A stretch of 64,000 nucleotides of DNA from Bacteroidota bacterium (GCA_037133555.1 JBAXNW010000011.1:8971-72970), one strand, 5' to 3'; numbered from the stretch's first letter, positions 26,506 through 45,665 are shown. Made by a program: numbers and translations. The notes: a model not told the origin generated them from the letters alone.

Positions 26506-26508
26506 ACC

Positions 26509-27768: not shown

Positions 27769-27775
27769 AGAAAAT

Positions 27776-27838: not shown

Positions 27839-27874
27839 ATTAAAAAGAAGTTTATAAATTTAAAAAATAATACG

Positions 27875-28756: not shown

Positions 28757-28771
28757 AGCTTAGCCGGAAAA

Positions 28772-28813
28772 CAGAAGACCGAATACCGAAGACCGAAGAC
28801 GGGAGACGGGAGA
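28772..28813. repeat. Six tandem 7-nt units (CCGAAGA family) immediately after the HlyD gene
   Basis: CAGAAGA CCGAATA CCGAAGA CCGAAGA CGGGAGA CGGGAGA. Confidence 0.85.
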
Positions 28814-28857
28814 TAAAAAATTCATATCTGTTCAATTAATAATTTAAAATTAAAAAA

Positions 28858-29319: not shown

Positions 29320-29383
29320 GTTCATAAAATTCTTAAAGTTTATAAAGTATAGAGAGGTAATTAAAGTTGAATGAAGCACGCAT

Positions 29384-29411
29384 TCTTCAGACTTCGGTCT
29401 TCGGTCTTCCT
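29384..29411. repeat. Four tandem 7-nt units (TCTTCGG family), the reverse complement of the 28772-28813 tract
   Basis: TCTTCAG ACTTCGG TCTTCGG TCTTCCT. The reverse complement reads AGGAAGA CCGAAGA CCGAAGT CTGAAGA. Confidence 0.85.
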
Positions 29412-29428
29412 ACTAAAAATAAATATCT

Positions 29429-30340: not shown

Positions 30341-30344
30341 AGAA

Positions 30345-31073: not shown

Positions 31074-31109
31074 TTATGAATTAGGAATTAATTTAACTTC
31101 GGTATTCGG
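31072..31109. repeat. 7-nt periodic tract in the ATPase-permease spacer, ending in ACTTCGG TATTCGG
   Basis: AATTATG AATTAGG AATTAAT ... ACTTCGG TATTCGG. The last 14 nt are the reverse complement of CCGAATACCGAAGT, cf. 28779-28792. Confidence 0.7.
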
Positions 31110-31132
31110 ACATATTTTACAACTACATATCA

Positions 31133-32239
31133 ATGAAAAGATTTAAAGGTTTTGTTATCAAAGAATTTTACCACATTTTCAGGGATTACCGTACCATGGT
31201 GATACTGTTCGGGATGCCTTTTGTACAGATATTGTTGTTTGGCTTTGCAATAACCAACGAGATCAACAGTGCCGGTATTGCCATTTTGGATCATTCCAAA
31301 GATGTGCATACACAAAAAATTACCCAAAAACTATTATCGTCAGGCTATTTTCAACTGGAAAAAAATCTGAACAATTACAATCAGATAGAAGAAAGTTTCC
31401 GAAAAGGTAAAATCAAAGAAGTCATCATTTTTGAGAACGATTTTGCAGAAAAACTTGAAAAAGAAAAAAGAGTAGGTATCCAGATTATAGCTGATGCTTC
31501 CGACCCTAATACCGCTAGTTTGTTGAGCAATTATACCACATCTATCATCAATAATTACCAACAGGAAATCATGCAAAATAAAAAACTGCCGATGCAGATT
31601 GATACAGATGTAAAAATGTTGTACAACGAAGAATTGAAAGGGGTTTTTATGTTTGTTCCGGGTACCATTACCATACTTTTGATGTTGATTTCTGCCATGA
31701 TGACTTCCATATCAATTACCCGCGAAAAAGAGTTGGGCACCATGGAAGTGCTATTGGTTTCCCCACTCAAACCTATACAAATCGTTATAGGTAAAGTGAT
31801 TCCCTATATTTTTATTTCATTTATGATTGCTGTAATTATTTTAGTGATGGGATTCACTGTATTTGGAATGCCTGTGCAAGGTAGTTTGTTATTACTGATG
31901 GGCGAATGTTTGCTTTTCATCATCATGGCATTGTCTTTAGGAATTTTTATCTCGACGGTTACCAAAACCCAACAAACGGCGATGATGATTTCGATGTTTG
32001 CATTGATGTTGCCTACCATTCTCTTGTCCGGCTTCATCTTTCCGATCGAGAACATGCCACTTCCGCTTCAGATAATCAGCAACGTAGTCCCCCCACGATG
32101 GTTTATCATCATCATCAAAGCTATCATGCTCAAAGGTGTTGGGATTGCTTATATCTGGAAAGAAACAGCCATTATCGTTGCCATGACGCTTGTTTTTATC
32201 GGATTGAGTATTAAAAAATTTAAAGTAAGACTGGATTAA
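31133..32239 (+). CDS. ABC-2 type transporter permease (YbhS/YbhR-like)
   Basis: 368 aa. One N-terminal TM, a large periplasmic loop, then five C-terminal TM segments. Typical ABC-2 layout. Confidence 0.85.
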   Translation: MKRFKGFVIKEFYHIFRDYRTMVILFGMPFVQILLFGFAITNEINSAGIAILDHSKDVHTQKITQKLLSSGYFQLEKNLNNYNQIEESFRKGKIKEVIIFENDFAEKLEKEKRVGIQIIADASDPNTASLLSNYTTSIINNYQQEIMQNKKLPMQIDTDVKMLYNEELKGVFMFVPGTITILLMLISAMMTSISITREKELGTMEVLLVSPLKPIQIVIGKVIPYIFISFMIAVIILVMGFTVFGMPVQGSLLLLMGECLLFIIMALSLGIFISTVTKTQQTAMMISMFALMLPTILLSGFIFPIENMPLPLQIISNVVPPRWFIIIIKAIMLKGVGIAYIWKETAIIVAMTLVFIGLSIKKFKVRLD

Positions 32240-32248
32240 AATCGAAAC

Positions 32249-33358
32249 ATGAGAACAATACTATACCTCCTCCAAAAAGAATTTATTCAGATATTCCGGA
32301 ACAAAGCCATGCTTCCGCTAATGTTTGTCATGCCTATCATACAGTTATTGGTACTTTCGTATGCAGCAACCTTTGAAATGAAGAATATTAAAATTCATAT
32401 TATTGATATGGATAAATCTTCCATGTCGCGAGCGTTGATCAGTAAGTTTAATGGTTCTAAGTTTTATACCCTGGCGAATTATTCCGATGCTTACAAAACT
32501 GCCGAAAACGACCTCAAAGTAAACAAAGCTGACATGGTCCTTCAAATTCCACCTCATTTTGAACGAGATTTGATGCGCGATGACCAGGCCAAACTGCAGA
32601 TGACCATCAATGCCATCAATGGCAGTGCTGCAGGACTCATCAATGCCTATTCATTTTCAATCATTAAAGAATTTAACCGCAATGCAATCATTGAAACCTA
32701 TGGGACTCCATTAGAAATGCCCATAAAGACGACTACTTCTTTTTGGTACAATCCTCAACTAAATTACAAAACCTATATGGTGCCTGGAATTCTGGTGCTT
32801 TTGGTTACAATCATCGGTTTATTTCTTGCTGCTATGAATGTGGTCAGGGAAAAAGAAATAGGAACCATCGAACAAATTAATGTTACCCCCATACATAAAT
32901 ATCAGTTCATTGCCGGAAAACTCATCCCGTTTTGGCTTATTGCCATGTTTGAGTTGGCGTTGGGTTTATTGATAGCAAAGATTGTATTTTCGCTTCCCGT
33001 TCTGGGTAATGTAGGTATTGTTTTTACTGTTGCTTCGGTTTATATTGTAGCAGTTTTGGGAATCGGTTTACTGATATCTACCATCACCAATACCCAACAA
33101 CAAGCCATGTTCATTGCCTGGTTTTTCATGGTGATATTCTTACTGATGAGTGGATTATTTACGCCTATTGAAAGCATGCCAAGCTGGGCTCAGCAGCTTA
33201 ATATTATCAATCCCATTGCATATTTTATTAAGGTAATGCGGATGGTTCTGCTCAAAGGATCAGGTCTTATAGATATTATGCCACAATTCCTTTCGTTGAT
33301 AGTGTATGCATTGGCAGTTTTAACGCTTGCTGTAAGTTTATACCGAAAAAGAAATTAG
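32249..33358 (+). CDS. ABC-2 type transporter permease (YbhS/YbhR-like), paralog of the preceding gene
   Basis: 369 aa. Same topology as, and visibly similar to, 31133..32239 (e.g. REKE[LI]GT[MI]E). Confidence 0.85.
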   Translation: MRTILYLLQKEFIQIFRNKAMLPLMFVMPIIQLLVLSYAATFEMKNIKIHIIDMDKSSMSRALISKFNGSKFYTLANYSDAYKTAENDLKVNKADMVLQIPPHFERDLMRDDQAKLQMTINAINGSAAGLINAYSFSIIKEFNRNAIIETYGTPLEMPIKTTTSFWYNPQLNYKTYMVPGILVLLVTIIGLFLAAMNVVREKEIGTIEQINVTPIHKYQFIAGKLIPFWLIAMFELALGLLIAKIVFSLPVLGNVGIVFTVASVYIVAVLGIGLLISTITNTQQQAMFIAWFFMVIFLLMSGLFTPIESMPSWAQQLNIINPIAYFIKVMRMVLLKGSGLIDIMPQFLSLIVYALAVLTLAVSLYRKRN

Positions 33359-33380
33359 TAATAAAAGGGACAAAAAAAAG

Positions 33381-33410
33381 AAAGGCTGGCATTTTTCAAT
33401 ACCAGCCTTT
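33381..33410. terminator. Bidirectional terminator hairpin between the efflux operon and T9SS paralog 1
   Basis: AAAGGCTGG (33381-33389) pairs with CCAGCCTTT (33402-33410). A-run upstream and T-rich downstream. It sits between convergent stops at 33358 and 33435. Confidence 0.75.
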
Positions 33411-33434
33411 CTTATAAAATGCAGTATATAAAAA

Positions 33435-35345
33435 TTATCTTCTTACAATAATTAATTTATCTGTAGCTTGAGCTGATGGTGTTTTCAATGTATAGAAATA
33501 GGTTCCGCTGCAAAGAGCAGATAAATCTACATCAACAGTATAATTTCCTTTTGCTTGAAAGCCCTGATGGATTGTTTGTACAGTTCTGCCCATTATATCT
33601 GTAATAATGATTTCAGCTTTTTCGCTGTTTTTCAATTCATAAGAAATCTGGGTAGTAGTATTTGCAGGATTTGGCATACAAGAGAATAAGTTAACTGTCT
33701 TGTTAATTTCATTGACACCAACAATGTTATCGAAATGCGCGTTTGCATTAAAGAGTGAACGAATCATCACTGCAGGAACATTACCACTTGACCAAATATA
33801 CCAGGTATTTGCGGTTGGGTCAAAAAACAATGATGTTTGAGAATATTGTGGAATTCCTGTATTGTCAGTAGCAAATTTAACAGTATCTGTACCACCATAT
33901 ACTTGAATACCTACATAGTACAAAGAATCCTTTTGCATGGTATATCCAGCAGTAAAGGCAAGTGAAATTGATGGTGGATTTGCACCAGTAGCTGTAGGAA
34001 TATTTGCAGCAGTGATATAATAATTTGATGATTGAGCTACAATGGTTCTTGTTCCGGTTGAAGCAAAATATTGATATAGAACGGCTTTAATTTTTGAACC
34101 CACTTTTGTTTCAAGGTTAACAACACAATTTATTCCATATGACATTCGATCCTGCCCTACCTGATATCTGTTAGCTGCAGTATACGGATTGCTTAATCCG
34201 CTTGTTGAGCTTCTCCATCTTGAACTGTAATAATAATTGTTGTCCCTTGAATACATACAGGTATCACATACTACTTTAATATCAAAAGTGTCCTGAGCAA
34301 GCAAAAATGGAATCGAATCACTTGAAACATAAGAGAAAACTTTATACGTTCCTAATGTTGTAGGAGGCGTAAAAAAATAATTGTTAAGTTCCAGGGCTGT
34401 AATGTTTTGACCTGGGGTTAAAGTTGTATCAATACTAGTAGAATCGGCATGTGTAATCAATTCAACACCATGCAATTTTACATGGGTTTGAGTTTTCCCA
34501 CCCAAATTTGTAAAATCTCCATCATAATATAAAGACCTGCCAATTCCGGATGGAATTCTCGTATAACCATCGTACAAGGTAACTCTGTCTATTTGTATGT
34601 TATTATTAGCTGGTTCAAATAATTCTACGTCATCAATCGCCCAACCATATCCGCCACCATATTGAGAGCCACTTGAAGTAGAAGCAGGACCGTAAAATCT
34701 GAATCGAATCCAAACTTGAGCTTTGTTGGCTGCCCATTGAGAAATATTAAGTTCTTTAAATCCATAAGCATACGTATTAACAGCTACCGTTGGATTAACA
34801 TCAATGGTATGCCAATTGATATTGTCACTGCTAATTTCTAATAATGAAGAATCCTGATTGAAAGCTTTGTACAATTGATAGAATTTAATACTCACTGCAT
34901 TAAAACCCAAAGTATTGATAGCAACCGAATTGGTTAATGAAGAGTTAGCAACAGCATATATACCATTAATTAAGTTGGAAATACCATCAAAATAGAAAAG
35001 CCCGGATGTACAAGTAGGTGATTGCATATAAATATCAGGATGTACATATTGTTTAAATAGAGTTGAGAGATTAGAAGTATCTGATTTCCATTCCCATGTA
35101 TTTAAAATAGCAGCTTCCTGATCAGGCATTTTAGTTGCCACCCAATCAAGGGGATCTGTCATTGTAGATGACCATATCATAGCTTTTGTATTTGAAGCTA
35201 TAGGCTTGTTAAAGTATTGATCTAGATTTTGTGGACCATCAGCTTTGGCTGATTGAATAGTGGATGGCATAACACCTAAGTTTTGCCCAAAACTCAACGT
35301 ACTGCTAATTATAAGTAATACGATAAAAGATAAAAAATTTCTCAT
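33435..35345 (-). CDS. T9SS-sorted secreted protein, paralog 1 of 4 (MAM-like + CARDB-like + unassigned domain + Por C-terminal sorting domain)
   Basis: 636 aa. Signal peptide MRNFLSFIVLLIISSTLSFGQ. YGGGYGWAIDDVELF ends a MAM/choice-of-anchor-J-like jelly roll. C-terminal LFSCMPNPANTTTQISYEL...GTYFYTLKT...KLIIVRR fits the Por/T9SS CTD pattern (TIGR04183 type). Confidence 0.85.
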   Translation of the reverse strand: MRNFLSFIVLLIISSTLSFGQNLGVMPSTIQSAKADGPQNLDQYFNKPIASNTKAMIWSSTMTDPLDWVATKMPDQEAAILNTWEWKSDTSNLSTLFKQYVHPDIYMQSPTCTSGLFYFDGISNLINGIYAVANSSLTNSVAINTLGFNAVSIKFYQLYKAFNQDSSLLEISSDNINWHTIDVNPTVAVNTYAYGFKELNISQWAANKAQVWIRFRFYGPASTSSGSQYGGGYGWAIDDVELFEPANNNIQIDRVTLYDGYTRIPSGIGRSLYYDGDFTNLGGKTQTHVKLHGVELITHADSTSIDTTLTPGQNITALELNNYFFTPPTTLGTYKVFSYVSSDSIPFLLAQDTFDIKVVCDTCMYSRDNNYYYSSRWRSSTSGLSNPYTAANRYQVGQDRMSYGINCVVNLETKVGSKIKAVLYQYFASTGTRTIVAQSSNYYITAANIPTATGANPPSISLAFTAGYTMQKDSLYYVGIQVYGGTDTVKFATDNTGIPQYSQTSLFFDPTANTWYIWSSGNVPAVMIRSLFNANAHFDNIVGVNEINKTVNLFSCMPNPANTTTQISYELKNSEKAEIIITDIMGRTVQTIHQGFQAKGNYTVDVDLSALCSGTYFYTLKTPSAQATDKLIIVRR

Positions 35346-35385
35346 TTTTGCGTTAAATTTAATTAAACATTGTTTTTCTCATTTA

Positions 35386-35393
35386 CAAAAGTA
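35386..35393 (-). promoter_or_regulatory. -7 promoter box TACTTTTG for paralog 1
   Basis: The plus strand reads CAAAAGTA, 41 nt upstream of the ATG. The same ACAAAAGTAAT string is conserved upstream of paralogs 2 and 3. Confidence 0.55.
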
Positions 35394-35483
35394 ATATTAT
35401 TTTTAAGAAAAAGTAAAATATTAAGAAATATTAAAAAGATTTAACGTAGTTTGAAATTTAATGAAATTGTTTAATGCACATAA

Positions 35484-35515
35484 AAAAGGCTGACAGGTAA
35501 CACTATCAGCCTTTT
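35484..35515 (-). terminator. Terminator hairpin of paralog 2
   Basis: AAAAGGCTGA / TCAGCCTTTT 10-bp stem, ~21 nt past the stop at 35536, flanked by A/T runs. Confidence 0.75.
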
Positions 35516-35535
35516 AAAAATATATTTATTGAAAA

Positions 35536-37461
35536 TTATCGCTTTACAATAATTAATTTATCCGTAGCTTGAGCTGAAGGAGTTTTTAATGTATAGAAAT
35601 AAGTGCCACTGCAAAGCATAGACAAATCTACATCAACAGTATAATTTCCTTTGGTTTGGAATCCTTGTGCTAAAGTTTGAACAGTTCTTCCCATAATATC
35701 GGTAATAATGATTTCAGCTTTTTCACTGTTTTTTAATTCATAAGAAATTTGGGTAGAATTAGTTGCAGGGTTAGGCATACAAGAGAATAAGTTGATTGAC
35801 TTGGTTTTTTCGTTAATACCAACTGTAAAAGGGCCATTGTCAAAAGCATAATTGATATTAAACCCTGAACGGATCATCATCGCTGGTACTACTCCACTAC
35901 CCCATATATACCAAGTGTTTGCTGTTGGGTTAAAATAAAGTGATGTTTGAGAATATTGAGGAATACCTGTATTGTCAGTAGCAATTTTAACAGTATCTGT
36001 TCCTCCAAACACCTGAATACCTACATAATACATAGAATCTTTTTGTAATAGATATTCAGAAGTGTAATGTAAAGAAATGGAAGGTGGATTCACCATGGAA
36101 GAAGCAGGAATTTTATCAGCAGTAATATAATAATTAGCTGATTGAGCAACGATTGTTCTTGTACCCGTAGCTGAAAAATATTTATATAAAACAGCTTTGA
36201 TTTTTGATCCAACTTTGGTAGCATTGTTTACAACACAATTAACACCATAGGCCATTCTGTCCTGGTTAACCATAAATCTGTTAGCAGCAGTATAAGGATT
36301 GCTTAATGTACCTGTAACACCAGCCCATCTTGAACTAACATATGTATTATTATCTCTCGAATACATACAAGTATCGCAAACTACTTTTATATCAAAAGTA
36401 TCCTGTGCAAGAACAAATGGAATAGAATCACTTGAAACATAGGAAAAAACTTTATAAGTACCCTGAGTTGTTGGAGGAGTAAAAAAGTAATTATTAATTT
36501 CTAATCCAGTTACACTTTGTCCGGGAGCCAAAGTTGTATCACTACTTGTTGAATCAGCCTGAGTAGTAACTTCTTTTCCATGTAATTTCACATGGGTTTG
36601 AGTTAAGCCACCTAAGTTCATAAAATTGGCATCGTAATACATAGGTCTTCCCAATCCTGATGGTATTTTTGTATAACCATCATACAAAGTAGATGCATCT
36701 ACCTGCATAACATTATTATTTGGAACAAATAGTTCAACATCATCAATAGCCCAGCCATAGCCTCCACCATATTGAGCTCCACTTGTTGTAGAAGCAGGTG
36801 CAGAAAATCTGAATCTGATCCAGACTTGCGTTTTGTTGGCAGCCCATTGCGTAATACTAAATTCTTTCCATCCATAAGCGTAGGTATTTGCACTTCCAAC
36901 AGTAATAGTAGGATTTACCATGATAGTATTCCAGTTTATATTATCGGTACTTACTTCAAGTAAAGTAGAATCTGCATTGTAAGATTTGTACAATTGATAA
37001 AATTTAATATTTACTGCTGATTTCCCTGCAGTATTAATTGCAATTGCATTGGTTAATGTAGCATTGGATATTCCATAATTCCCAGCAACTAAATTAGATA
37101 TTCCATCAAAATAAAAAACACCTTGCATTGGAGAAGTAGAGCCCATATAAGGTCCAACATATTGTTTCCAATAGGTTGAAAATTGCGAGGTGTCAGATTT
37201 CCATGCCCAACTAGTTAAAATATTGCTGCTTTGATCAGCTAATTTTGCAGTAACCCATTGGCTGGCTGTAGCCATGTTTGAATACCAAATAGAAGTGGTT
37301 TTTGCATTTGAACCTAAAGACTTGTTAAAGTACTGTTCAAGATTTTGATTCTCGCCCTTTTGATCAAGTCGAACCGTTGAGGATATAACACTTAGGTTTT
37401 GTCCAAAACTCAACGTACTGCTAATTACAAGTAATACGATAAAAGATAAAATTTTTCTCAT
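35536..37461 (-). CDS. T9SS-sorted secreted protein, paralog 2 of 4
   Basis: 641 aa. Collinear with paralogs 1 and 3. Same signal peptide (SSTLSFGQN), YGGGYGWAIDDVELF, VVCDTCMYSRDNN, and T9SS CTD ending KLIIVKR. Confidence 0.85.
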   Translation of the reverse strand: MRKILSFIVLLVISSTLSFGQNLSVISSTVRLDQKGENQNLEQYFNKSLGSNAKTTSIWYSNMATASQWVTAKLADQSSNILTSWAWKSDTSQFSTYWKQYVGPYMGSTSPMQGVFYFDGISNLVAGNYGISNATLTNAIAINTAGKSAVNIKFYQLYKSYNADSTLLEVSTDNINWNTIMVNPTITVGSANTYAYGWKEFSITQWAANKTQVWIRFRFSAPASTTSGAQYGGGYGWAIDDVELFVPNNNVMQVDASTLYDGYTKIPSGLGRPMYYDANFMNLGGLTQTHVKLHGKEVTTQADSTSSDTTLAPGQSVTGLEINNYFFTPPTTQGTYKVFSYVSSDSIPFVLAQDTFDIKVVCDTCMYSRDNNTYVSSRWAGVTGTLSNPYTAANRFMVNQDRMAYGVNCVVNNATKVGSKIKAVLYKYFSATGTRTIVAQSANYYITADKIPASSMVNPPSISLHYTSEYLLQKDSMYYVGIQVFGGTDTVKIATDNTGIPQYSQTSLYFNPTANTWYIWGSGVVPAMMIRSGFNINYAFDNGPFTVGINEKTKSINLFSCMPNPATNSTQISYELKNSEKAEIIITDIMGRTVQTLAQGFQTKGNYTVDVDLSMLCSGTYFYTLKTPSAQATDKLIIVKR

Positions 37462-37496
37462 TCTAGAATTAAATTAAATTTATTTATTTTTTTTGA

Positions 37497-37504
37497 CAAA
37501 AGTA
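37497..37504 (-). promoter_or_regulatory. -7 promoter box TACTTTTG for paralog 2
   Basis: The plus strand reads CAAAAGTA, 36 nt upstream of the ATG at 37461. Confidence 0.55.
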
Positions 37505-37593
37505 ATGATTTTTTATAAAAAGGCAATTTTAAAAATAGGAAATCTTTATAAGACTTGATAAACGCACAAAAGAAATTGTATTGATCAAAAAAA

Positions 37594-37622
37594 AAAGGCT
37601 GATATTCATACTATCAGCCTTT
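37594..37622 (-). terminator. Terminator hairpin of paralog 3
   Basis: AAAGGCTGATA / TATCAGCCTTT 11-bp stem with a 7-nt loop, ~22 nt past the stop at 37644. Confidence 0.75.
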
Positions 37623-37643
37623 TAAAAAAATGTTTATTGAAAA

Positions 37644-39554
37644 TTATCGTTTTACAATTATTAATTTATCCGTTGCTTGAGCAGAAGGCGTTTTTAGTGT
37701 ATAGAAATAAGTACCACTGCATAAGCCAGTCAAGTCAACATCAAGTGCATAATTTCCTTTAGCCTGCATACCTTGATGAATGGTTTGAACAGTTCTACCC
37801 ATAATATCAGAGATTATAATATCTGCTTTTTCGCTGTTTTTCAACTCATAGGAAATCTGGGTAGTCGTATTAGCCGGATTAGGCATGCATGAAAACAAAC
37901 TGATGCTTTTATTTATATTATTGACATCACTAGGTGGAATTAGATTTGGGTTAAAAATTGTTCGTATCATCATTGCAGGAACGTTACCCTTAGCCCAAAT
38001 ATACCATGTATTTGCAGTTGGATCAAAATAAAGCGATGTCTGCGAATATTGAGGAATTCCGGTATTGTCAATAGCAATCTTTACTGTATCAGTTCCTCCA
38101 AAAACTTGAATACCAACATAATACATTGAGTCCTTTTGCATGGTATACCCTGCTGTAAATGGGAGTGAAATGGAAGGTGGATTAACACCAGTAGTTATAG
38201 GAACATCTGCCGAAGTAATATAGTAATTTCCTGATTGAGCAACGATGGTTCTGGTAGCGGTAGCAGCAAAGTATTTATACAAAACCGCTTTTATTTTAGA
38301 GCCTACTTTTGTAGCATTGTTAACCACACAATTAATACCATAAGCCATTCTGTCCTGGTTTACCTGATATCGGTTAGCAGCAGTAAATGGATTGCTTAAT
38401 CCATTTGTAGCACTTCTCCATCTTGAACTATAATAAGTATTGTTATCTCTTGAATACATACAAGTATCACAAACTACCTTTATACTAAATGTATCTTGAG
38501 CTTTAACGAATGGGATAGAATCGCTTGAAACATAGGCAAAAACTTTATATGTGCCAACTGTTGAAGGAGGTGTAAAGAAATAACTATTAATTTCCAAGCC
38601 TGTAACACTTTGACCTGGGGTCAACGTTGAATCACTGCTTGTTGAATCAGCCTGGGTAATTACTTCTTTTCCATGTAATTTAACATGGGTTTGAGTTATA
38701 GCACCTAAGTTCATAAAATCAGCAGTGTAATACATTGGTCTGCCCAAACCTTTCGGTGATTGCATATAACCATCAAACAAAGTAGCTCCATCTACTTGAA
38801 TAACGTTATTGTTTGGGACAAATAATTCAACATCATCTACAGCCCATCCGTAGCCACCACCATATTGGGCACCACTTGTTGTAGACGCAGGTGCAAAAAA
38901 TCTGAATCTAATCCATACCTGAGCTTTGTTTGCTGCCCATTGAGAAAGACTAAATTCTTTCCAGCCGTAAGCATAGGTATTTGCGCTACCAACGGTAATC
39001 GTTGGATTCACCATTATACTATGCCAGTTAACATTATCGGTGCTTACTTCTATAAATGTAGAATCGGCATTGAAGGATTTGTACAATTGGTAAAATTTAA
39101 TATTTACAGCCGACTTTCCTGTAGTGTTAATGGCAATAGCATTGGTTAGCGTAATATCAGTTACTCCATAATTGGCAGTTATCAGATTAGTTATACCATC
39201 GAAATAAAAAACACCTTGCATAGGTGTAGTAGAACTCATATAAGGTCCAACATAATTTTTCCAATTGGTCGAAAATTGAGAAGTATCAGATTTCCATTCC
39301 CATTGATTTAAAATATTGGAGCTATGGTCAGCTAATTTTGCAACGACCCATTGGCTCGAAGTGTTCATATTAGAATACCAGATGGATGTAGTTTTTAAAT
39401 TTGAAGCTAGATTCTTGTTAAAATATTGCTCAAGACTTAGATCTTCACCTTCTCGAATTTGGCTAATCGCAGAGGGTTTAACATTTACGTTTTGTCCAAA
39501 ACTCAAAGTACTGCTTATTGCAAGCAACACAATAAAAAATAAAAATTTTCTCAT
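37644..39554 (-). CDS. T9SS-sorted secreted protein, paralog 3 of 4
   Basis: 636 aa. By my residue count: signal peptide 1-21, linker 22-55, MAM-like 56-246 (YGWAVDDVELF), CARDB-like 247-361, unassigned domain 362-535, T9SS CTD 552-636. Confidence 0.85.
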   Translation of the reverse strand: MRKFLFFIVLLAISSTLSFGQNVNVKPSAISQIREGEDLSLEQYFNKNLASNLKTTSIWYSNMNTSSQWVVAKLADHSSNILNQWEWKSDTSQFSTNWKNYVGPYMSSTTPMQGVFYFDGITNLITANYGVTDITLTNAIAINTTGKSAVNIKFYQLYKSFNADSTFIEVSTDNVNWHSIMVNPTITVGSANTYAYGWKEFSLSQWAANKAQVWIRFRFFAPASTTSGAQYGGGYGWAVDDVELFVPNNNVIQVDGATLFDGYMQSPKGLGRPMYYTADFMNLGAITQTHVKLHGKEVITQADSTSSDSTLTPGQSVTGLEINSYFFTPPSTVGTYKVFAYVSSDSIPFVKAQDTFSIKVVCDTCMYSRDNNTYYSSRWRSATNGLSNPFTAANRYQVNQDRMAYGINCVVNNATKVGSKIKAVLYKYFAATATRTIVAQSGNYYITSADVPITTGVNPPSISLPFTAGYTMQKDSMYYVGIQVFGGTDTVKIAIDNTGIPQYSQTSLYFDPTANTWYIWAKGNVPAMMIRTIFNPNLIPPSDVNNINKSISLFSCMPNPANTTTQISYELKNSEKADIIISDIMGRTVQTIHQGMQAKGNYALDVDLTGLCSGTYFYTLKTPSAQATDKLIIVKR

Positions 39555-39594
39555 TTTTTTAAAGAATTAAATTAAACATTATTATTTTGTACTA

Positions 39595-39602
39595 CAAAAG
39601 TA
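39595..39602 (-). promoter_or_regulatory. -7 promoter box TACTTTTG for paralog 3
   Basis: The plus strand reads CAAAAGTA, 41 nt upstream of the ATG at 39554. Confidence 0.55.
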
Positions 39603-39694
39603 ATACATAATTTATTCAAAATAATATTTTTTAAAAAAATATTTTACTTTATTTTGTTAATTGAGATTTACCCCAAAGCCAATTAATCCAATTT

Positions 39695-39729
39695 AAAAAG
39701 GCTGATATTTAAAAAATACCAGCCTTTTT
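39695..39729 (-). terminator. Terminator hairpin of paralog 4
   Basis: AAAAAGGCTG(A)TA / TA(C)CAGCCTTTTT stem with one mismatch, ~22 nt past the stop at 39751. Confidence 0.7.
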
Positions 39730-39750
39730 GAATGTCAGTCTAAAAATAAT

Positions 39751-41577
39751 TTATCGTTTTACAACTATTAATTTTTCAGTAGCTTGAGCAGTTGATGTTT
39801 TTAACGTTACGAAATAAGTACCGCTTGTTAAATTTGATAAATCGATATCAAGCGTATAATTTCCTTTGGCTTTCATACCCTGATTCATCGTTTTGACAGT
39901 TCTGCCCATTATATCTGTAATATAAATTTCAGCCTTTTCGTTCTTCTTCATTTCATAAGAAATCTGTGTAGTAGTATTGGCAGGATTAGGCATACAAGTA
40001 AATAATGAAATATCTTTGTTTAATTCATTCATACCCACAATGCCATCCCAATGTTCATTCTGATTGAAAACTGTACGAATCATCATGGCGGCAACATTGC
40101 CACTTTGCCAGATATACCAGGTATTGGCAGTTGGATCAAAATAAAGTGAAGTTTGTTCCCATTGAGGAATTCCAGTGTTATCTGCAGCTATTTTAACTGT
40201 ATCAGTTCCACCAAAAACTTGAATACCTGCAAAATATAAAGAATCTTTTTGCATAGTATATCCTGCAGAAAAAGCAAGGTTAATAGAAGGAGGATTGACG
40301 CCGCCTGCTGCTGGGACATTTGCTGCAGTTATGTAATAGTTTGACGATTGAGCAACAATGGTTCTTGTACCGGTAGCTGCAAAATATTTATACAATACAG
40401 CTTTTATTTTTGAACCTACTTTAGTTTCATTATTAACAACACAATTAATCCCATAAGCCATTCTATCCTGATTTACCTGAAAACGATTCGTTGCAGTATA
40501 AGGATCAGATAAGGTTCCTGTTGCACCAGCCCACCTTGAACCATCGTAAGTGTTATTATCTCTTGAATATTTACAAGTATCGCAAACTATTTTAATGCTG
40601 AATGTATCTTGTGCTAAATGCGGGATAGAATCACTGGAAATATAAGAGGTTACTTTATAGGTACCTACTGTTGTTGAAGGTGTATAAAAATAATCATTTA
40701 AAATAAACCAGTCAGCAAGGCTTGTGTTTGAAAGTAAGGTTGTATCACTACTAGTAGAATCAGCTCCGGTAGTTAAATCGACACCATGTAATTTTACATG
40801 TGTTTGTGTAATAGCACCAAAATTTGAGATATCGGCATCACAATACATAGGTCTTCCTAATCCTTTTGGAATCTGGGTATAACCATCGTGGAAAGTAACT
40901 CTATCGGCAGTTAAATTGCTGTTAACCATGCTTCCAACAAAAACATCGTCAACATCTAAACTGGCACCATCTGAACCTTGGTATTGAAAAGCAACTTTAA
41001 AATTTGTACTAGTAGCATAATTGTTCAATAAAATTAGTTTTTGATAGTAGGTAAAACTTGTGAATGTACCAGCACTATCCTCTGTAAATACAGTAGTCCA
41101 GTTAGTACCTCCATCAGTACTGACCTTTACGCGGAAATCATAATTATTATATGGACTTACACCCCAATAATAACTCATATTCCACCAGAATTTCAAACAA
41201 GGATTGCTTATAGTGGATAAATTAATTGAAGGTGAAATCAACCATTCATTTTGAGGTGCCAAAGCAGGATCATATTCTACAAAAGCACTTTTGGTTCCGG
41301 TGTGTGCACCAGTTCCGACTTTCCATTGATAAAGAGCATTGGTTGTCCCGTTTTGCTTTACCCATCCAGTTGGAGGAAAAGTAGTCCCTTCAAATCCTTC
41401 GTTTAATAACACTGCTTTTGAGTTAGAAAGGATATTTTTTTCAAAGTATTGTTGAAGACTTTGACATTTCCCTTCCTGAATAGGATTTGTTTTTGAAGGC
41501 CTAACACTAACGTTTTGACCAAAGCTTAACGTGCTGCAAATTGCAAGCAATACAATAGAAGATAAAAACTTTTTCAT
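39751..41577 (-). CDS. T9SS-sorted secreted protein, paralog 4 of 4, with a different (canonical choice-of-anchor-J-like) N-terminal domain
   Basis: 608 aa. Residues 1-55 and ~225-608 are collinear with paralogs 1-3. Residues ~56-215 (EGFEGTTFPPTGWVKQNG ... VSTDGGTNWTTV ... LDVDDVFVG) are unrelated in sequence to the corresponding part of the others. Confidence 0.85.
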   Translation of the reverse strand: MKKFLSSIVLLAICSTLSFGQNVSVRPSKTNPIQEGKCQSLQQYFEKNILSNSKAVLLNEGFEGTTFPPTGWVKQNGTTNALYQWKVGTGAHTGTKSAFVEYDPALAPQNEWLISPSINLSTISNPCLKFWWNMSYYWGVSPYNNYDFRVKVSTDGGTNWTTVFTEDSAGTFTSFTYYQKLILLNNYATSTNFKVAFQYQGSDGASLDVDDVFVGSMVNSNLTADRVTFHDGYTQIPKGLGRPMYCDADISNFGAITQTHVKLHGVDLTTGADSTSSDTTLLSNTSLADWFILNDYFYTPSTTVGTYKVTSYISSDSIPHLAQDTFSIKIVCDTCKYSRDNNTYDGSRWAGATGTLSDPYTATNRFQVNQDRMAYGINCVVNNETKVGSKIKAVLYKYFAATGTRTIVAQSSNYYITAANVPAAGGVNPPSINLAFSAGYTMQKDSLYFAGIQVFGGTDTVKIAADNTGIPQWEQTSLYFDPTANTWYIWQSGNVAAMMIRTVFNQNEHWDGIVGMNELNKDISLFTCMPNPANTTTQISYEMKKNEKAEIYITDIMGRTVKTMNQGMKAKGNYTLDIDLSNLTSGTYFVTLKTSTAQATEKLIVVKR

Positions 41578-41604
41578 GGTAATTTTTTAAAGTGAATAAT
41601 TAAA

Positions 41605-41612
41605 CAAAAATA
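41605..41612 (-). promoter_or_regulatory. Candidate -7 box TATTTTTG for paralog 4
   Basis: The plus strand reads CAAAAATA, 28 nt upstream of the ATG at 41577. Confidence 0.35.
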
Positions 41613-41945
41613 AATAAAGATAAAGTTTATTTTAAATATATTAAGTTAACGGTTTCATTGAATCAGTTAACGGTAAAATCATAAAGACGAATTGAACTCA
41701 GTAAAAAAATTTCAAATAATTATTACCTCCCAAAAAAATTAATATATCTAAATATCACAATTTAAATTGCTAACCATTTAATTTTATTATATTTATCAAA
41801 ATATGAGGGTGAATAAATTTTAATACCACAAAGTTAGTATTTTTTTATAAATCACAACCATCTTATCTAAAAATTTTATCATCATTTTATATTGATTGTT
41901 TTTAGCAATTTCAAAATTGAGAGAAACTGAGCACAAATCAATTCA

Positions 41946-43652
41946 TTAACTTCCTGGAATTGAGTCTATCAGATTACGGGTATAATCCGAAGTAGGATTA
42001 TTATAAATACTATCCGCTTCGCCCATTTCTACAATTTCACCATTTTTCATCACTATCATTCGGTCCGACATAAATTTAACAACCGAAAGGTCGTGAGAAA
42101 TAAAGATATAGGTAAATTTAAAATCTAGTTTTAATTCATTCAGTAAATTCAGTACCTGAGCCTGTACCGATACATCCAATGCTGAAACCGATTCGTCGCA
42201 GATAATCAACTCAGGGTTCAAAGCCAAAGCACGTGCAATGCAGATCCGTTGTCGTTGCCCACCCGAAAATTCATGCGGATACCGCATAAAATGAGTTTCG
42301 TTCATATTTACCCTTTCGAGCAGTTCAATTACACGGGCTTTACGGGCTTTGTCAGTATCCAGAATGTGATGCACTTTCATAGGCTCCATGATGGCACTAC
42401 CTATACTTATTCGTGGGTTTAAAGAAGAATAGGGGTCCTGAAAAATAATCTGTAATTTTTGCCGGCAGGCCCTCATTTCGGCGGGTTTGAGCTGCGAAAG
42501 TTCTTTGCCTTTAAAAATAATTTGTCCACTTGAAGCATCTATCAAGCGCAATATACTCCTTCCGAGAGTAGTTTTCCCACATCCAGATTCACCCACCAAT
42601 CCCAATGTTTCGCCTTCGTAAACATCAAAACTGATATTATTTACCGCCCTGAAACTTGCTGTCACTTTACCCATCCACGATTTTCGGGTTGGGAAATCAA
42701 CATGAATGTTTTTTACCTGCAAAATAGGTGGGCGACTGTAGATAATATTTTGATTTTGAAATCTTTCACTGATTGTAATTTCGACAGCTTTAAAATGAGT
42801 TGAATGCATGAAGTCGTTCACGGTTGGTAAATGGGCAAGCCGGATATCTAATTTAGGACGACAAGCCAATAATCCCTGGGTGTAAGGATGTTGTGCATAA
42901 TGAAAAACATTGCTTGTTTTACCTTGTTCTACAATTTTACCTTTGTACATTACGGCTACATTATCTGCAATCTCGGCCACCATGCCCAAATCGTGGGTAA
43001 TAAAAATAATAGACATTCCATGTTTTTGCTGGAGCGTTTTTAAAAGTTCGAGTATCGTTTTTTGAACTGTAACGTCCAAAGCTGTAGTGGGTTCATCAGC
43101 TATCAACAAGGATGGCTTACAGGAAACAGCCATTGCTATCATCACCCTTTGCTTTTGTCCACCCGATAATTCATGAGGGTATTTATTGAAGACTTCATCT
43201 GGTTTAGGGAGCTGCACTTCAGCAAAGAGTTCAAGAGTTTTAAGCTTTGCATCTTTTTTAGAAATATTCTGATGTAATAAGATGGCTTCCATTACCTGTT
43301 TACCACATTTCAAAACTGGATTAAGGGAAGTCATTGGTTCCTGGAAAATCATGGCAATTTTATTACCCCGCCATTTTCGCATTTCTTTTTCAGTCAATTG
43401 CAACAAATCCTGATGATTGTTCTCAGAAATGTGAAAAATAATCTCACCCGAAGTGATTTTCCCGGGAGGGCAATTGATGAGCTGCATTATTGCCAACGAA
43501 GTAACCGATTTTCCTGAACCGGATTCACCCACAATACCTAGTATTTCGCCTTTTGCAAGCGAAAACGAAATATCATCTACCGCATTCTGAATACCATTAT
43601 CGGTTTTAAACTCAACCCTGAGGTTGTTGATTTGCAATAATTGCTTTTCCAA
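41946..43652 (-). CDS. Fused double ABC ATPase of the Opp/Dpp (oligopeptide/dipeptide, YejF-like) type
   Basis: 568 aa. Two Walker A sites (GESGSGKS, GESGCGKT), two LSGGQ(K/R)QR signatures, two Walker B sites, and the HPYT oligopeptide-type C-terminal motif after domain 1. The start codon is TTG at 43652, with an in-frame stop 9 nt upstream and no ATG available. Confidence 0.9.
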   Translation of the reverse strand: MEKQLLQINNLRVEFKTDNGIQNAVDDISFSLAKGEILGIVGESGSGKSVTSLAIMQLINCPPGKITSGEIIFHISENNHQDLLQLTEKEMRKWRGNKIAMIFQEPMTSLNPVLKCGKQVMEAILLHQNISKKDAKLKTLELFAEVQLPKPDEVFNKYPHELSGGQKQRVMIAMAVSCKPSLLIADEPTTALDVTVQKTILELLKTLQQKHGMSIIFITHDLGMVAEIADNVAVMYKGKIVEQGKTSNVFHYAQHPYTQGLLACRPKLDIRLAHLPTVNDFMHSTHFKAVEITISERFQNQNIIYSRPPILQVKNIHVDFPTRKSWMGKVTASFRAVNNISFDVYEGETLGLVGESGCGKTTLGRSILRLIDASSGQIIFKGKELSQLKPAEMRACRQKLQIIFQDPYSSLNPRISIGSAIMEPMKVHHILDTDKARKARVIELLERVNMNETHFMRYPHEFSGGQRQRICIARALALNPELIICDESVSALDVSVQAQVLNLLNELKLDFKFTYIFISHDLSVVKFMSDRMIVMKNGEIVEMGEADSIYNNPTSDYTRNLIDSIPGS

Positions 43653-43758
43653 TGGATTTTATTATTTAATATGTTTTAATTTAGCGCTGACAGGGTTTAG
43701 AACCCCCTGTCAGTGTTTAGAAAAGGTAAAATTAATAATATTCTGATGATTTAAAATT

Positions 43759-43792
43759 AAAAAGCTGTTTTGCAAAAACAAAACAGCTTTTT
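43759..43792 (-). terminator. Intrinsic terminator of the dipeptidase gene
   Basis: Perfect 14-bp stem AAAAAGCTGTTTTG / CAAAACAGCTTTTT with a 6-nt loop and a T-run on the minus strand. About 120 nt past the stop at 43914. Confidence 0.75.
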
Positions 43793-43913
43793 AAAATATA
43801 CAATCTGAATAATTTCTCAGGCAAATGTTGATTATTTTGACTATAATTCAAGACCTAATGCCTTATAAGTTATAAATCTATTGACAAATAAACTATATGC
43901 CTAATTCACCAAA

Positions 43914-45665
43914 TTAATGACTATCGTGTCCTTTGAATTTTAATTTTTCACCGGTTTGTTCTGCTATTTTTTTCAAATACCATTCAGGATAACCAGGTTG
44001 ATCGGGATAAGCTGGTTGGGTATAACCATTGCCCTGAAATTTACCATCTTTTTCCTTTTTGATATTTCCATCAATGTATTTAACCAATAAATATTCATAC
44101 AATTCTTTCCATTTTCCAAAGGTAAGATTGGCTTCCTGGTTTGAATAATCAGTTAGAATTGCAATGGCTTTGGCGTTATCTGCTTTGTAAACAGCATCTG
44201 CTTTTTTATCAATGTCGATTGATTTGGCAAAAAACCCATTTTCCAATTCACTTTGAACTTTTTGAATGTCTTTAATCATCACATTGTAGCGGGTATAACA
44301 AAAGTTAGAAACCTGATTGAATAACCAGAAAGCAGAAGTAGGAGAGTATTTTAACATATTGCCATTACCTACAGCAAAATTAGCTGGAATTTTATTAATA
44401 CCACAATACATAGGTGTGTAAACAGAAGAGTAACTATCGTCGACCCCAAACCAGAAAATACCACCAATTGGATTGGGTAACCATGAACGGGATTGAGCAA
44501 TAAAAGAAAATCCGGTTTGTTGGGTGGATATGGCTCTTTCATTTAAATAGGTAACACCATCTACTTTCCAAGTTAATGGACGCCAGCGGTAACCGCTCTG
44601 GTAAGGACCTGCACCTAAATCAGTGGTCATATCCAAAGGTGTGCCTTCAAAATGATCTCTCATCAGACCTATTACATCCTGTAACGAAAGTTTTTGATCG
44701 GGTTTTACCCATAAAGGCATGCGATGCGTGAGGTTTTCACCTTTTGCATAATCGATATAGTTGACCATATCTTTACAAACTTTATTAAAGCCTGACCAAA
44801 CCCTTGCTTCGCTAAAACGGGCACCACTAAAATCGAGGGGTGCATAAGTATTAGAAAAATCAAAATCAGCATCTTTACCGTTAAATAATTTCTGCTGACG
44901 TGCAAAGCTAATTACATCAAATGCATATACGGTCTCAATCCCGGGATTGAATATCTTTGATAAATTTTTACTAGAAATAGAAGTTTTTCCGTCTTCAAGA
45001 GGGAAAGTCGTGATACGGGCATGGTTGGCATGACCCGAAATGTAACCGTCAGGAATATGACGGGCTACCCATACGGCTCCTTTGCTATATTGCTTCATGT
45101 TTATTTTTCCGGTTTTGTCATAAACCGGTGAACCTTTTCCAATAATTTCAAAGATCCACACTTCGTTAGGATCAGAAATTGAAATAGATTCTCCAGTACT
45201 GTAATAACCATATTCGGCCACTAGTTCGCCCATTATCTTGATGGCTTCTCGGGCTGTTTTTGAACGTTGCAATGCAAGGTACATCATACTACCATAATCA
45301 ATGATAGCAGTAGTATCCTGTAAAACCTCACGACCAGTATAAGTAGTTTCACCAATGGCTACCTGATTTTCGTTCATATTGCCAACAACAGAATACGTAT
45401 GTAAAACCTGTTTAATTTTACCTAATGGTTTGCCGGTGTCCCATTCATAAATGTCCAACATGCTACCTGCGGGATAATCTTTAGCAGGACGATAATACAA
45501 CTCACCATATAAAGTGTGAGAATCAGCAGCATAAGTGATAAAGCAAGACCCATCTTTAGAAGCCCCTTTGGTGACTAAAAAATTGGTACATGCCTGGGCG
45601 TAAAAAAATACACCTGAAACATAGGCGATAACGCCTAATAAAGCGATCAATCTGAGTTTTTTCAT
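43914..45665 (-). CDS. Secreted C69-family dipeptidase
   Basis: 583 aa. The signal peptide is followed directly by the nucleophile Cys (YAQACTNFLVTKGAS), as in Ntn-type C69 peptidases. Confidence 0.85.
   Translation of the reverse strand: MKKLRLIALLGVIAYVSGVFFYAQACTNFLVTKGASKDGSCFITYAADSHTLYGELYYRPAKDYPAGSMLDIYEWDTGKPLGKIKQVLHTYSVVGNMNENQVAIGETTYTGREVLQDTTAIIDYGSMMYLALQRSKTAREAIKIMGELVAEYGYYSTGESISISDPNEVWIFEIIGKGSPVYDKTGKINMKQYSKGAVWVARHIPDGYISGHANHARITTFPLEDGKTSISSKNLSKIFNPGIETVYAFDVISFARQQKLFNGKDADFDFSNTYAPLDFSGARFSEARVWSGFNKVCKDMVNYIDYAKGENLTHRMPLWVKPDQKLSLQDVIGLMRDHFEGTPLDMTTDLGAGPYQSGYRWRPLTWKVDGVTYLNERAISTQQTGFSFIAQSRSWLPNPIGGIFWFGVDDSYSSVYTPMYCGINKIPANFAVGNGNMLKYSPTSAFWLFNQVSNFCYTRYNVMIKDIQKVQSELENGFFAKSIDIDKKADAVYKADNAKAIAILTDYSNQEANLTFGKWKELYEYLLVKYIDGNIKKEKDGKFQGNGYTQPAYPDQPGYPEWYLKKIAEQTGEKLKFKGHDSH

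Follow-up and report, generated by a model that had tools for sequence, protein, structure and literature searches.

The reading to which we give slightly better than even credence is that a locus in a 64,000-nt stretch of Bacteroidota DNA (the window, meaning the whole stretch analysed) holds four genes that are transcribed independently and form an old tandem array, and that the products are non-enzymatic, surface-displayed binding proteins belonging to a large unnamed Bacteroidota family of type IX secretion system (T9SS) cargo. The evidence comes from gene layout, sorting-domain searches, structure prediction, the distribution of the family and the divergence of the copies.

A four-gene array with promoter-like boxes and hairpins

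ORF calling placed all four genes on the minus strand, with starts spaced 2116, 2093 and 2023 nt apart, and both the lengths (Table 1) and the spacings agreed with a preliminary description of this DNA. The window derives from an uncultured freshwater Bacteroidales lineage.

Table 1. Positions of the genes, promoter-like boxes, terminator hairpins and paralog 3 domains in the window.
Feature	Position (nt)	Strand	Remarks
Paralog 1	33435-35345	-	636 aa; signal peptide, linker, type-A head, Ig-like domain, lectin-like domain 3, type A CTD
Paralog 2	35536-37461	-	641 aa; layout as in paralog 1
Paralog 3	37644-39554	-	636 aa; type-A head layout
Paralog 4	39751-41577	-	608 aa; head at residues 57-214 of the choice-of-anchor J type; Ig-like domain, domain 3 and CTD as in the others
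Box of paralog 1, TACTTTTG	35386-35393	-	-7-type; within conserved ATTACTTTTGT
Box of paralog 2, TACTTTTG	37497-37504	-	
Box of paralog 3, TACTTTTG	39595-39602	-	
Box of paralog 4, TATTTTTG	41605-41612	-	
Second candidate box of paralog 4, TAACTTTG	41829-41836		
Hairpin after paralog 1	33378-33413	-	Then U8 tract; dG -24.9 kcal/mol, z -6.6; terminator scan agrees
Hairpin after paralog 2	35484-35515	-	dG -18.2 kcal/mol, z -6.0
Hairpin after paralog 3	37593-37623	-	Then U10 tract; dG -15.7 kcal/mol, z -6.2; terminator scan agrees
Hairpin after paralog 4	39695-39729	-	Weaker U tract; dG -18.1 kcal/mol, z -7.0
Paralog 3 signal peptide	39495-39554	-	
Paralog 3 disordered linker	39390-39494	-	
Paralog 3 type-A head	38817-39389	-	
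Paralog 3 Ig-like domain	38502-38816	-	
Paralog 3 domain 3	37935-38501	-	
Paralog 3 CTD	about 37647-37919	-	

The TA(C/T)TTTTG box reported for each gene was found at four sites, 28-41 nt 5' of the ATG in all units, and ATTACTTTTGT was identical across three of them; the region upstream of paralog 4 is non-homologous to those of paralogs 1-3. The consensus of the -7 box and its position (-12 to -5) have been described previously (PMC9723704). In a related MAG, ATTACTTTTGT was kept in one of two intergenic spacers, while the second reads ATTACTTTTAT, with a box of TACTTTTA in which the final G is broken, and the sequence around the box has diverged in these spacers. Across the window, TAnnTTTG was not enriched (125 found versus 103 expected); the support for promoters therefore comes from the conservation of the boxes in position and across genomes, and not from enrichment.

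Each gene also has its own AAAGGCTG...CAGCCTTT hairpin, as had been claimed, and all four are stable (dG -15.7 to -24.9 kcal/mol, z -6 to -7). A U run of at least six follows three of the four, the hairpin of the 608-aa gene being followed by UUUUUAAAUU only, and both spacers of the related MAG have kept the hairpin. These results support the view that the units are self-contained, the box and hairpin having been duplicated together with the gene; the boxes are promoter-like by sequence, and they and the hairpins would act as promoters and terminators at the array.

Secretion signals

A Por_Secre_tail domain was found at the extreme C-terminus of all four paralogs (E 1e-10 to 1e-15; residues 558-633, E 6.8e-12 in paralog 1). 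The scores, 40.6-55 bits in Pfam (cut-off 27) and 40.9-48.2 bits in NCBIfam (cut-off 23), place every protein above both curated cut-offs, and the Por sorting domain named in the preliminary description is thereby confirmed. The type A CTD was also above cut-off in 76-77 of 79 typical relatives, and sorting-domain membership supports the assignment of the four proteins as probable type A CTD (T9SS) cargo. Another CTD protein is encoded inside the window (50096-63802); no T9SS component genes were found among the ORFs checked there, which were a minority of its ORFs.

At the N-terminus, a Sec/SPI signal peptide without a lipobox Cys was read from the sequence (MRKFLFFIVLLAISSTLSFG, followed by Q), and Gln21, directly behind this hydrophobic segment, is at least 90% conserved. 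A Q-rule of Bacteroidetes signal peptides has been described (PMC5837995, PMC10653852). Sec would export the pre-protein, which signal peptidase I would cut between LSFG and Q, and cleavage by the Q-rule would leave an N-terminal Gln that may be converted to pyroglutamate. The T9SS, recognising the type A C-terminal domain, would then carry the protein across the outer membrane, after which the PorU sortase is expected to remove the CTD and the protein to be attached to the surface or released. The predicted mature protein, of ~520 residues, would begin with a flexible linker of ~35 residues and continue with the jelly-roll head, the Ig-like spacer and domain 3, a lectin-like beta-sandwich. 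Both the route and the surface attachment are inferred from these signals.

Domain layout and fold

The layout of the array proteins is supported: a signal peptide and a disordered linker are followed by the jelly-roll head, the Ig-like domain, an unassigned beta-sandwich and, last, the CTD. The linker motif L.QYF.K...SN.K, noted earlier, is invariant in all four. The full-length AlphaFold2 model of paralog 3 (pLDDT 81) is all-beta with four domains, residues 17-53 and 541-550 being disordered.

The heads are of two types. Only paralog 4 matched choice-of-anchor J (NF038128; 57.7 bits, cut-off 30), while paralogs 1-3 gave no match to NF038128 at E<=1 and their type-A head had no database match. 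The head of paralog 4 is 21-23% identical to those of the other three, cross-searches of type-A and type-J head HMMs gave no mutual match, and hhalign of the two gave E 0.13. MAM (PF00629) reached 15 bits in paralog 4, below the cut-off of 26.4, and did not match paralogs 1-3, and the full-length model aligned to meprin beta (4gwn, 4gwm) with TM of only 0.21-0.25. In the wider family, 7-10 of 79 members matched choice-of-anchor J or Reelin-B. The MAM-like jelly roll of the preliminary description holds only at the fold or wider-family level, and not as a database match of the heads of paralogs 1-3. Its motif YGWA(I/V)DDVELF, ascribed to every protein, occurs in only three of them, the 608-aa protein having a different N-domain; the position of the head and its terminal ...DD(V/I) strand are common to all. 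In trees built by domain, each head type holds together across genomes with a bootstrap of 100, and paralogs 2 and 3 group together in both the head and the Ig-like domain (bootstrap 87-100).

The Ig-like domain (residues about 247-351) had been described as CARDB-like. CARDB (PF07705) had no match in any of the four proteins; it was matched in one of 30 close relatives (E 0.034) and nine of 79 distant ones (best E 2.8e-5), and the resemblance is therefore one of fold or wider family only.

Domain 3 (~190 aa) had no sequence match in Pfam, NCBIfam or the PDB, and its model from paralog 3 is a confident beta-sandwich (pLDDT 90, pTM 0.86). The best solved structures found by Foldseek were Cwp84's lectin-like domain (4ci7_B and 4d59_A; E 7e-4 to 1.3e-3, TM 0.50-0.52, rmsd 4.2-4.4 Å over ~170 columns), the PHR domains of MYCBP2 and BTBD2, and phage capsid, baseplate or fibre proteins. 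Among predicted viral structures (BFVD), phage minor tail and tail-fibre proteins were matched (E 1e-6 to 1e-3, TM ~0.5). These matches form one fold class. The Cwp84 lectin-like domain resembles the PHR domain (PMC4089489), and phage 812 has a tripod leg domain that resembles the Cwp84 domain (PMC13433997); the function of the Cwp84 domain itself is unproven (PMC4089489). The lectin-like assignment rests on a TM of about 0.5 at 9-14% identity, and the modelled likeness to Cwp84 is a similarity of fold class and not proof of homology. Pfam Lectin_like (PF18560) was weakly matched in four of 46 family members (best E 7.8e-4) and in none of the four window proteins, and hhalign of domain 3 with one Lectin_like sequence, the lectin-like region of P0076 (see below), gave a probability of 0.5%. 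Residues 362-535, which the preliminary description could not assign to a family, remain outside the well-characterised families after both sequence searches and structure prediction with Foldseek.

The full-length model also weakly matched multi-beta-sandwich proteins including the S-layer protein 7ptp_A, which, together with a consensus-like box and a stable hairpin per gene (with a weaker U tract in paralog 4), as expected of highly expressed genes, might suggest structural coat or matrix proteins, i.e. abundant surface-layer-like or biofilm-matrix components kept in several copies for dosage rather than specificity. We consider this very unlikely: dosage predicts homogenised copies, yet the distinct head types are each conserved across genomes, the S-layer and macroglobulin matches lie at TM below 0.25, and there was no sign of self-assembly or repeat features.

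A large family with protease fusions

The core formed by the Ig-like and lectin-like domains, the HMM of which matched paralog 1 with E 2.6e-148, defines a large family that has no name and numbers 1265 clusters at 50% identity. Two copies of the core are found in P0068, an M6 peptidase of 2597 aa, and one, together with the head, in P0076, a papain-type protease carrying a lectin-like domain; in these T9SS proteases it has the appearance of an accessory module added to a catalytic domain. The Cys clusters VVCDTC.YSRDNN and G(I/V)NCVVN, described as invariant, are so among the four paralogs, but they are lineage-specific and lost in the wider family, where Asp370, Tyr478, Trp517 and Arg531 (paralog 3 numbering) are the invariant residues.

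These four residues could have a structural or a catalytic role, and being polar or aromatic they would suit a different explanation, in which the proteins are unrecognised enzymes, the core with its SRD(N) motif and invariant Tyr, Trp and Arg being a new catalytic domain, e.g. a glycan- or protein-modifying one, and the head binding the substrate. T9SS cargo is rich in hydrolases, and the core has no annotated family. Nevertheless, we hold this to be quite unlikely, as the beta-sandwiches nearest in fold to domain 3 (lectin-like, PHR, phage fibre tips, TNF-like) are non-catalytic, the core stands beside a genuine protease domain in P0068 and P0076, as accessory modules do, and there is no conserved nucleophile-type motif, the Cys residues being lineage-specific. 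Pfam and NCBIfam searches likewise found no enzyme families in the four proteins or their typical relatives, in line with the earlier remark that no enzyme motif is visible.

Age of the array and selection

All-vs-all alignment gave identities of 58-79% at the amino acid and 64-79% at the nucleotide level, paralogs 2 and 3 being the closest pair (79% aa). With dS between copies at about 1 or more, synonymous sites are saturated; the duplications are old and the array is diverged, and the copies are not near-identical as had been stated. Selection is purifying in every domain, with dN/dS of 0.1-0.3 (0.13-0.27) for whole genes and 0.08-0.57 per domain and pair, the highest values falling at saturated dS.

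These data bear on the proposal that the array is a set of variable adhesins or antigens, varying the surface by differential or phase-variable expression or by recombination between copies, and so escaping phage, grazers or immunity. Several observations are compatible with it: every copy has a promoter-like box and a terminator hairpin of its own, the syntenic locus holds 4, 3 and 2 copies in related MAGs, the closely related MAG binchicken_co2_45 has a fifth copy at another site (L011), and the sorting domains, unlike the head types, cluster by genome with a bootstrap of 84, a hint of gene conversion in the past. We nonetheless regard it as unlikely. The low nucleotide identity and longest repeat families that are at most 85% identical leave little substrate for ongoing recombination, and both the dS values and the low dN/dS argue against it. 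No convincing inverton-like inverted repeats flank the promoters, and no recombinase was found among the ORFs checked around the array. Moreover, two strain-level assemblies share 98-100% identity per 500-nt bin over the array, as against 81-95% over the adjacent operon. The pattern of variable antigens anticipated in the preliminary description was therefore not borne out.

Possible function of the array proteins

Under the favoured reading of the array as a set of surface-displayed binding proteins, ligand binding is inferred, and the likely ligands would be glycans, or particulate or cell-surface material of the environment. The head is the diversified part, an unnamed type A in paralogs 1-3 and choice-of-anchor J in paralog 4, and it is carried on a conserved stalk of Ig-like domain, domain 3 and CTD. 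Since the head types differ on this shared stalk, the array may offer several binding specificities on one scaffold. As a tentative suggestion, appreciably short of an even chance, domain 3 and its Ig-like partner may constitute an unnamed Bacteroidota glycan- or surface-binding module, related to the Cwp84 lectin-like and PHR domains too distantly to be recognised by sequence, that serves as the stalk of T9SS adhesins with swapped heads and as a targeting module of T9SS proteases. Under this suggestion, such arrays would represent a small repertoire of ligand specificities, with type-A and choice-of-anchor J heads, and this repertoire would determine the particles or cells to which the freshwater Bacteroidales concerned become attached.

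Comparison with known systems

The distal domains of phage minor tail, tail-fibre and capsid decoration proteins are among the top matches of domain 3 in BFVD and the PDB (9jwb_Z, 9euj_G, 8zdp_v); identity is 9-20% with no sequence-level homology, however, and the context of the array is cellular, not viral. The choice-of-anchor J proteins, related to the MAM and Reelin subrepeat B jelly rolls, are matched by the head of paralog 4 but not by those of paralogs 1-3, and neither of the two head profiles, type A and type J, picks up the other. To our knowledge, the choice-of-anchor J domain itself has no known function.

Known T9SS type A CTD cargo (TIGR04183 / PF18962) includes RgpB and HBP35 of P. 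gingivalis and surface proteins of Flavobacterium and Cytophaga. The array proteins resemble it in three ways: a sorting domain of ~75 aa at the C-terminus passes the curated cut-offs, a Sec signal peptide with Gln directly behind it stands at the N-terminus, and the passenger consists of several beta-sandwich domains. They differ in that the passengers of three of the four have no characterised domain, and in that the array belongs to an uncultured freshwater Bacteroidales lineage.

With regard to the Cwp84 lectin-like (PF18560; 4CI7, 4D59) and PHR (MYCBP2, BTBD2) domains, the four window proteins have no PF18560 match and the profile comparison was negative, yet domain 3 as modelled resembles their class of twisted beta-sandwich (TM 0.39-0.52), is ~170-190 residues long and, in P0076, adjoins a papain-type protease, as in Cwp84.

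Organisation of the array

The array is a real feature, mostly correctly described beforehand: four minus-strand ORFs, here called paralogs 1-4 by rising window coordinate, were found exactly at the positions and start-to-start spacings (2116, 2093 and 2023 nt) previously claimed. On balance, and with some reserve, we infer four independently transcribed genes whose products would be exported by the Sec and T9SS pathways, attached to the surface or released, and would act as non-enzymatic binding proteins, in which the jelly-roll head has diversified and the stalk of Ig-like, lectin-like and sorting domains is conserved. The TonB-dependent receptor and SusD genes of the window look like a nutrient-uptake locus, for which no connection to the array was established. 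The array's core module (the Ig-like domain plus the following ~190-aa beta-sandwich, domain 3) was absent from the 4568-aa ORF by HMM search.

Features of the window (coordinates in nt; aa, amino acids)
Feature	Position	Strand	Remark
SusC-like TonB-dependent receptor (1060 aa) paired with SusD-like lipoprotein (507 aa)	18270-22996	minus	
Second TonB-dependent receptor-like ORF, 799 aa	23287-25686	plus	near the SusC/SusD pair
ABC-2 transporter operon	29429-33358	plus	flank, unrelated to the array
Paralog 1, 636 aa	33435-35345	minus	ORF
AATGTTTAATTTAATT-like motif	~35355-35370	minus	
Paralog 2, 641 aa	35536-37461	minus	ORF
AATGTTTAATTTAATT-like motif	~37470-37485	minus	
Paralog 3, 636 aa	37644-39554	minus	ORF
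AATGTTTAATTTAATT-like motif	~39565-39580	minus	
Paralog 4, 608 aa	39751-41577	minus	ORF
Oligopeptide-type ABC ATPase and C69 dipeptidase	41946-45665	minus	flank, unrelated to the array
4568-aa ORF	50096-63802	plus	further T9SS type A sorting-domain cargo; Por_Secre_tail at residues 4492-4566; also CARDB, PKD_6, Ig_7, right-handed beta-helix region

Promoter-like boxes and putative terminators

The three internal spacers are mutually homologous, each holding the TAnnTTTG-containing string ATTACTTTTGT and a AAAAGGCTG...CAGCCTTTTT hairpin ~20 nt 3' of the stop codon. The sequence 5' of paralog 4 lacks homology to these spacers and bears a separate TATTTTTG box 28 nt ahead of the ATG. Folding energies of the four hairpins as RNA lie between -15.7 and -24.9 kcal/mol, and their z-scores relative to shuffled sequences between -6 and -7; long U runs follow three of them, and the paralog 4 hairpin is followed only by UUUUUAAAUU. 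TAnnTTTG is the Bacteroidota sigma-A -7 box, located at -12 to -5 from the transcription start (PMC9723704). By itself the 8-mer is not enriched in the AT-rich window (125 observed versus 103 expected), and a scan for sigma-70 promoters, the wrong type for Bacteroidota, gave no signal above chance. Comparison of five spacers (three from the window and two from a related MAG) showed no change in the hairpin stems or the downstream motif, nor in the box of four of the five (TACTTTTA in the fifth), and drift in the sequence between them. It is this conservation, not 8-mer counts, that lends good comparative support to the earlier proposal of a promoter-like box and terminator for every unit, from which each gene would be transcribed separately.

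Downstream of the -7 box and just ahead of the ATG, in what is predicted to be the 5' UTR, a AATGTTTAATTTAATT-like motif is also conserved in three units of the window and in both spacers of L002, a locus of the related MAG (9843-10000 and 11909-12066). Bacteroidota are a phylum without Shine-Dalgarno sequences, and the motif could have a role in translation initiation or regulation.

Sorting domain, signal peptide and heads

HMM searches bore out the C-terminal sorting domain proposed for each protein: in all four paralogs the type A T9SS domain exceeds the curated cut-offs of both Pfam PF18962 (40.6-55 bits, cut-off 27) and TIGR04183 (40.9-48.2 bits, cut-off 23). The predicted signal peptide ends in ...LSFG directly before Gln21, which is at least 90% conserved and fits the Bacteroidetes Q-rule (PMC5837995, PMC10653852). 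The adjoining linker (residues 22-55; window 39390-39491 in paralog 3) is predicted to be disordered, with pLDDT below 50, and contains an L.QYF.K...SN.K motif that is invariant in the four paralogs and close relatives and is not conserved across the wider family; a role as propeptide or recognition motif is conceivable.

The choice-of-anchor J model NF038128 matches paralog 4 only (57.7 bits, cut-off 30, residues 57-214), the MAM score of which is 15 bits, below cut-off. The head of paralogs 1-3 has no match in Pfam or NCBIfam, and CARDB matches none of the four proteins in either database. These two heads, termed type J (paralog 4) and type A (paralogs 1-3), occupy the same position and have a common closing ...DD(V/I) strand; they are 21-23% identical, and neither profile detects the other (hhalign E 0.13; HMM cross-search negative). 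Because of this negative comparison, choice-of-anchor J or MAM as a name for the heads of paralogs 1-3 was dropped. Profile searches of PDB gave no match for either type. In the wider family, the consensus head opens with 'WSxDFxxPxxWT', resembling the choice-of-anchor J opening 'EGFEGxxFPPxGWT', and 79 typical relatives include matches to choice-of-anchor J (7), Reelin subrepeat B (10), MAM (2) and CARDB (9). Since relatives match these models, the labels 'MAM-like' and 'CARDB-like' of the preliminary description are fair at the superfamily or fold level, but do not denote membership for the four proteins. A literature search found no functional study of choice-of-anchor J.

Sequence and fold of domain 3

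Neither the 300-aa core nor domain 3, searched as single sequences and as profiles (alignments A3 and A5, respectively), gave anything significant in Pfam, NCBIfam or PDB sequences. The full-length AlphaFold2 model, built from a 51-sequence alignment, is all-beta with four domains (mean pLDDT 81, ~90 in the core) and disordered linker residues 17-53. Foldseek with this model matched nothing but generic multi-beta-sandwich proteins (for example complement C3/A2M, GH2 N-terminal regions and meprin), all at TM below 0.25, which says no more than 'all-beta, multi-domain'. Domain 3 modelled alone (paralog 3 residues 352-542; pLDDT 90, pTM 0.86) gave moderate matches only in the PDB (best E 4.5e-5, TM ~0.5): a cyanophage capsid protein (9jwb_Z), the phage 812 baseplate (9euj_G), the mycobacteriophage Douge central fibre (8zdp_v), the PHR domains of MYCBP2 and BTBD2 (3gbw, 3hwj, 3no8), and Cwp84's lectin-like domain (4ci7_B, 4d59_A; rmsd 4.2-4.4 Å). 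Among predicted viral structures, minor tail proteins and collagen-repeat tail fibres were matched.

These matches agree with one another. The Cwp84 lectin-like domain, whose function is unproven, has been described by Bradshaw et al. as similar to the MYCBP2 PHR domain (PMC4089489), and the tripod protein of phage 812 has a leg domain described as Cwp84-like and as a possible receptor-binding site (PMC13433997). Pfam Lectin_like matches 4 of 46 family members weakly (best E 7.8e-4) and DUF4082 matches 3 of 46; an hhalign comparison of domain 3 with the Lectin_like region of one metagenomic relative, P0076 (one sequence), was negative. Hence sequence searches and structure prediction agree with the earlier description of this region as not assignable to a family: domain 3 lies outside any well-characterised functional family and represents a new sequence family whose predicted beta-sandwich fold is similar to the lectin-like/PHR class. 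Its two Cys clusters (CDTC and NC), reported as invariant, are so only in the array's lineage, but are replaced by PLAGA, NAET and others in distant relatives. The residues invariant family-wide are Asp370 (of the SRD(N) motif), Tyr478, Trp517 and Arg531, joined by Gly487 only within closer family alignments. That the four proteins represent an unrecognised enzyme is in our estimate improbable, and we retain their reading as binding proteins.

Breadth of the family

A word-indexed search yielded ~57 relatives, all from uncultured Bacteroidales or Bacteroidota, with 'T9SS type A sorting domain-containing protein' as the best annotation. The exhaustive search with the core profile gave 1265 cluster representatives (50% identity) at E<=1e-3 and 529 at E<=1e-10, most of them ~600 aa long with the core at residues ~230-520. 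Genome matches include Bacteroidales MAGs, Fluviicola and marine single-cell Bacteroidota. Members sampled for names were all 'hypothetical', and no named, cultured or characterised relative was found, the members being 'hypothetical protein' or 'T9SS type A sorting domain-containing protein' from MAGs or single cells.

Two metagenomic relatives are large protease cargo proteins: P0068 (2597 aa) has two cores in an M6 (InhA-like) peptidase with GEVED, BACON and PKD domains, and P0076 (1442 aa) carries a type-A head and core behind an N-terminal papain-type protease with a Lectin_like domain. Since it is present in such cargo, the core behaves like an accessory binding or targeting module. A structural coat or matrix protein is a quite improbable role for the array products, for which binding remains the preferred function.

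Evolution of the array

Contrary to the earlier statement, the copies turned out not to be near-identical. Paralogs 1-3 share 73-79% protein identity with one another and 58-59% with paralog 4, nucleotide identity is 64-79%, and the longest nucleotide repeat families are 68-85% identical. Whole-gene synonymous divergence is ~1 or more between paralogs, with values of 0.5-0.7 only over the signal-peptide/linker segment of paralogs 1-3, and whole-gene dN/dS is 0.13-0.27; hence the duplications are old, and purifying selection acts on all copies.

Related loci, retrieved with the four paralogs as query, come from lake MAGs (Lac Pavin, Loclat, Deming). The window is matched exactly by contig NODE_202 of ENA assembly ERZ4224321 and is highly similar to the MAG 'uncultured Bacteroides sp. 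binchicken_co2_45'. Next to the ABC-2 permease, at the syntenic locus, three copies are present in the Lac Pavin MAG and two in the Deming MAG, and one or two copies occur in different contexts in other genomes. A fifth family member, ~55% identical, was observed as a single copy outside the array on another contig of binchicken_co2_45 (L011, 7645-9561), and clusters with single-copy genes from other MAGs (L009, L012). Neighbour-joining trees built domain by domain show a mosaic pattern. Head types are conserved between genomes, with bootstrap 100 both for the type-J clade and for a third type common to two MAGs. The pairing of paralogs 2 and 3 (bootstrap 87-100) speaks for an extra duplication in the window's genome, and the sorting domains of paralogs 1-3 cluster by genome (bootstrap 84), which suggests older homogenisation of the 3' part of these genes.

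Comparison of window 25836-42539 with L003 1-16659 of binchicken_co2_45 revealed a sharp identity break at the 3' end of paralog 1. From 42539 down to ~33540 (array and ABC ATPase), identity is 98-100% per 500-nt bin, and within the array at least 99.4% in all but two bins; from 33539 to 25836 (ABC-2 operon) it is only 81-95%. Either recombination between strains, with its breakpoint here, or chimeric co-assembly would account for the break.

The array had been interpreted as a set of variable adhesins or antigens, which we consider unlikely. No inverton-like repeats flank the promoters, no recombinase was seen in the ORFs checked nearby, the copies are too dissimilar to allow frequent gene conversion and evolve under purifying selection, and it is the array that lies on the nearly identical side of the break and the adjacent operon on the divergent one. 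Stable functional specialisation of the heads of these binding proteins fits the pattern better than antigenic variation.

Significance

T9SS cargo makes up a large share of the Bacteroidota surface proteome and is mostly annotated just as 'T9SS type A sorting domain-containing protein'. The locus reveals one such group as a coherent and very large family with a modular head-plus-stalk design, a ~190-aa domain not covered by existing models and a head type likewise not covered. As the type-A head and domain 3 currently have no models, the main value is in annotation: domain-family models for both would better annotate thousands of proteins and would also provide a defined target for binding studies. 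The array overturns no current view and opens no long-standing question. We see it primarily as one more uncharacterised family of T9SS cargo, in the form of an old paralog array, a relative of which, P0076, has its papain-type protease and Lectin_like domain in the order known from Cwp84.
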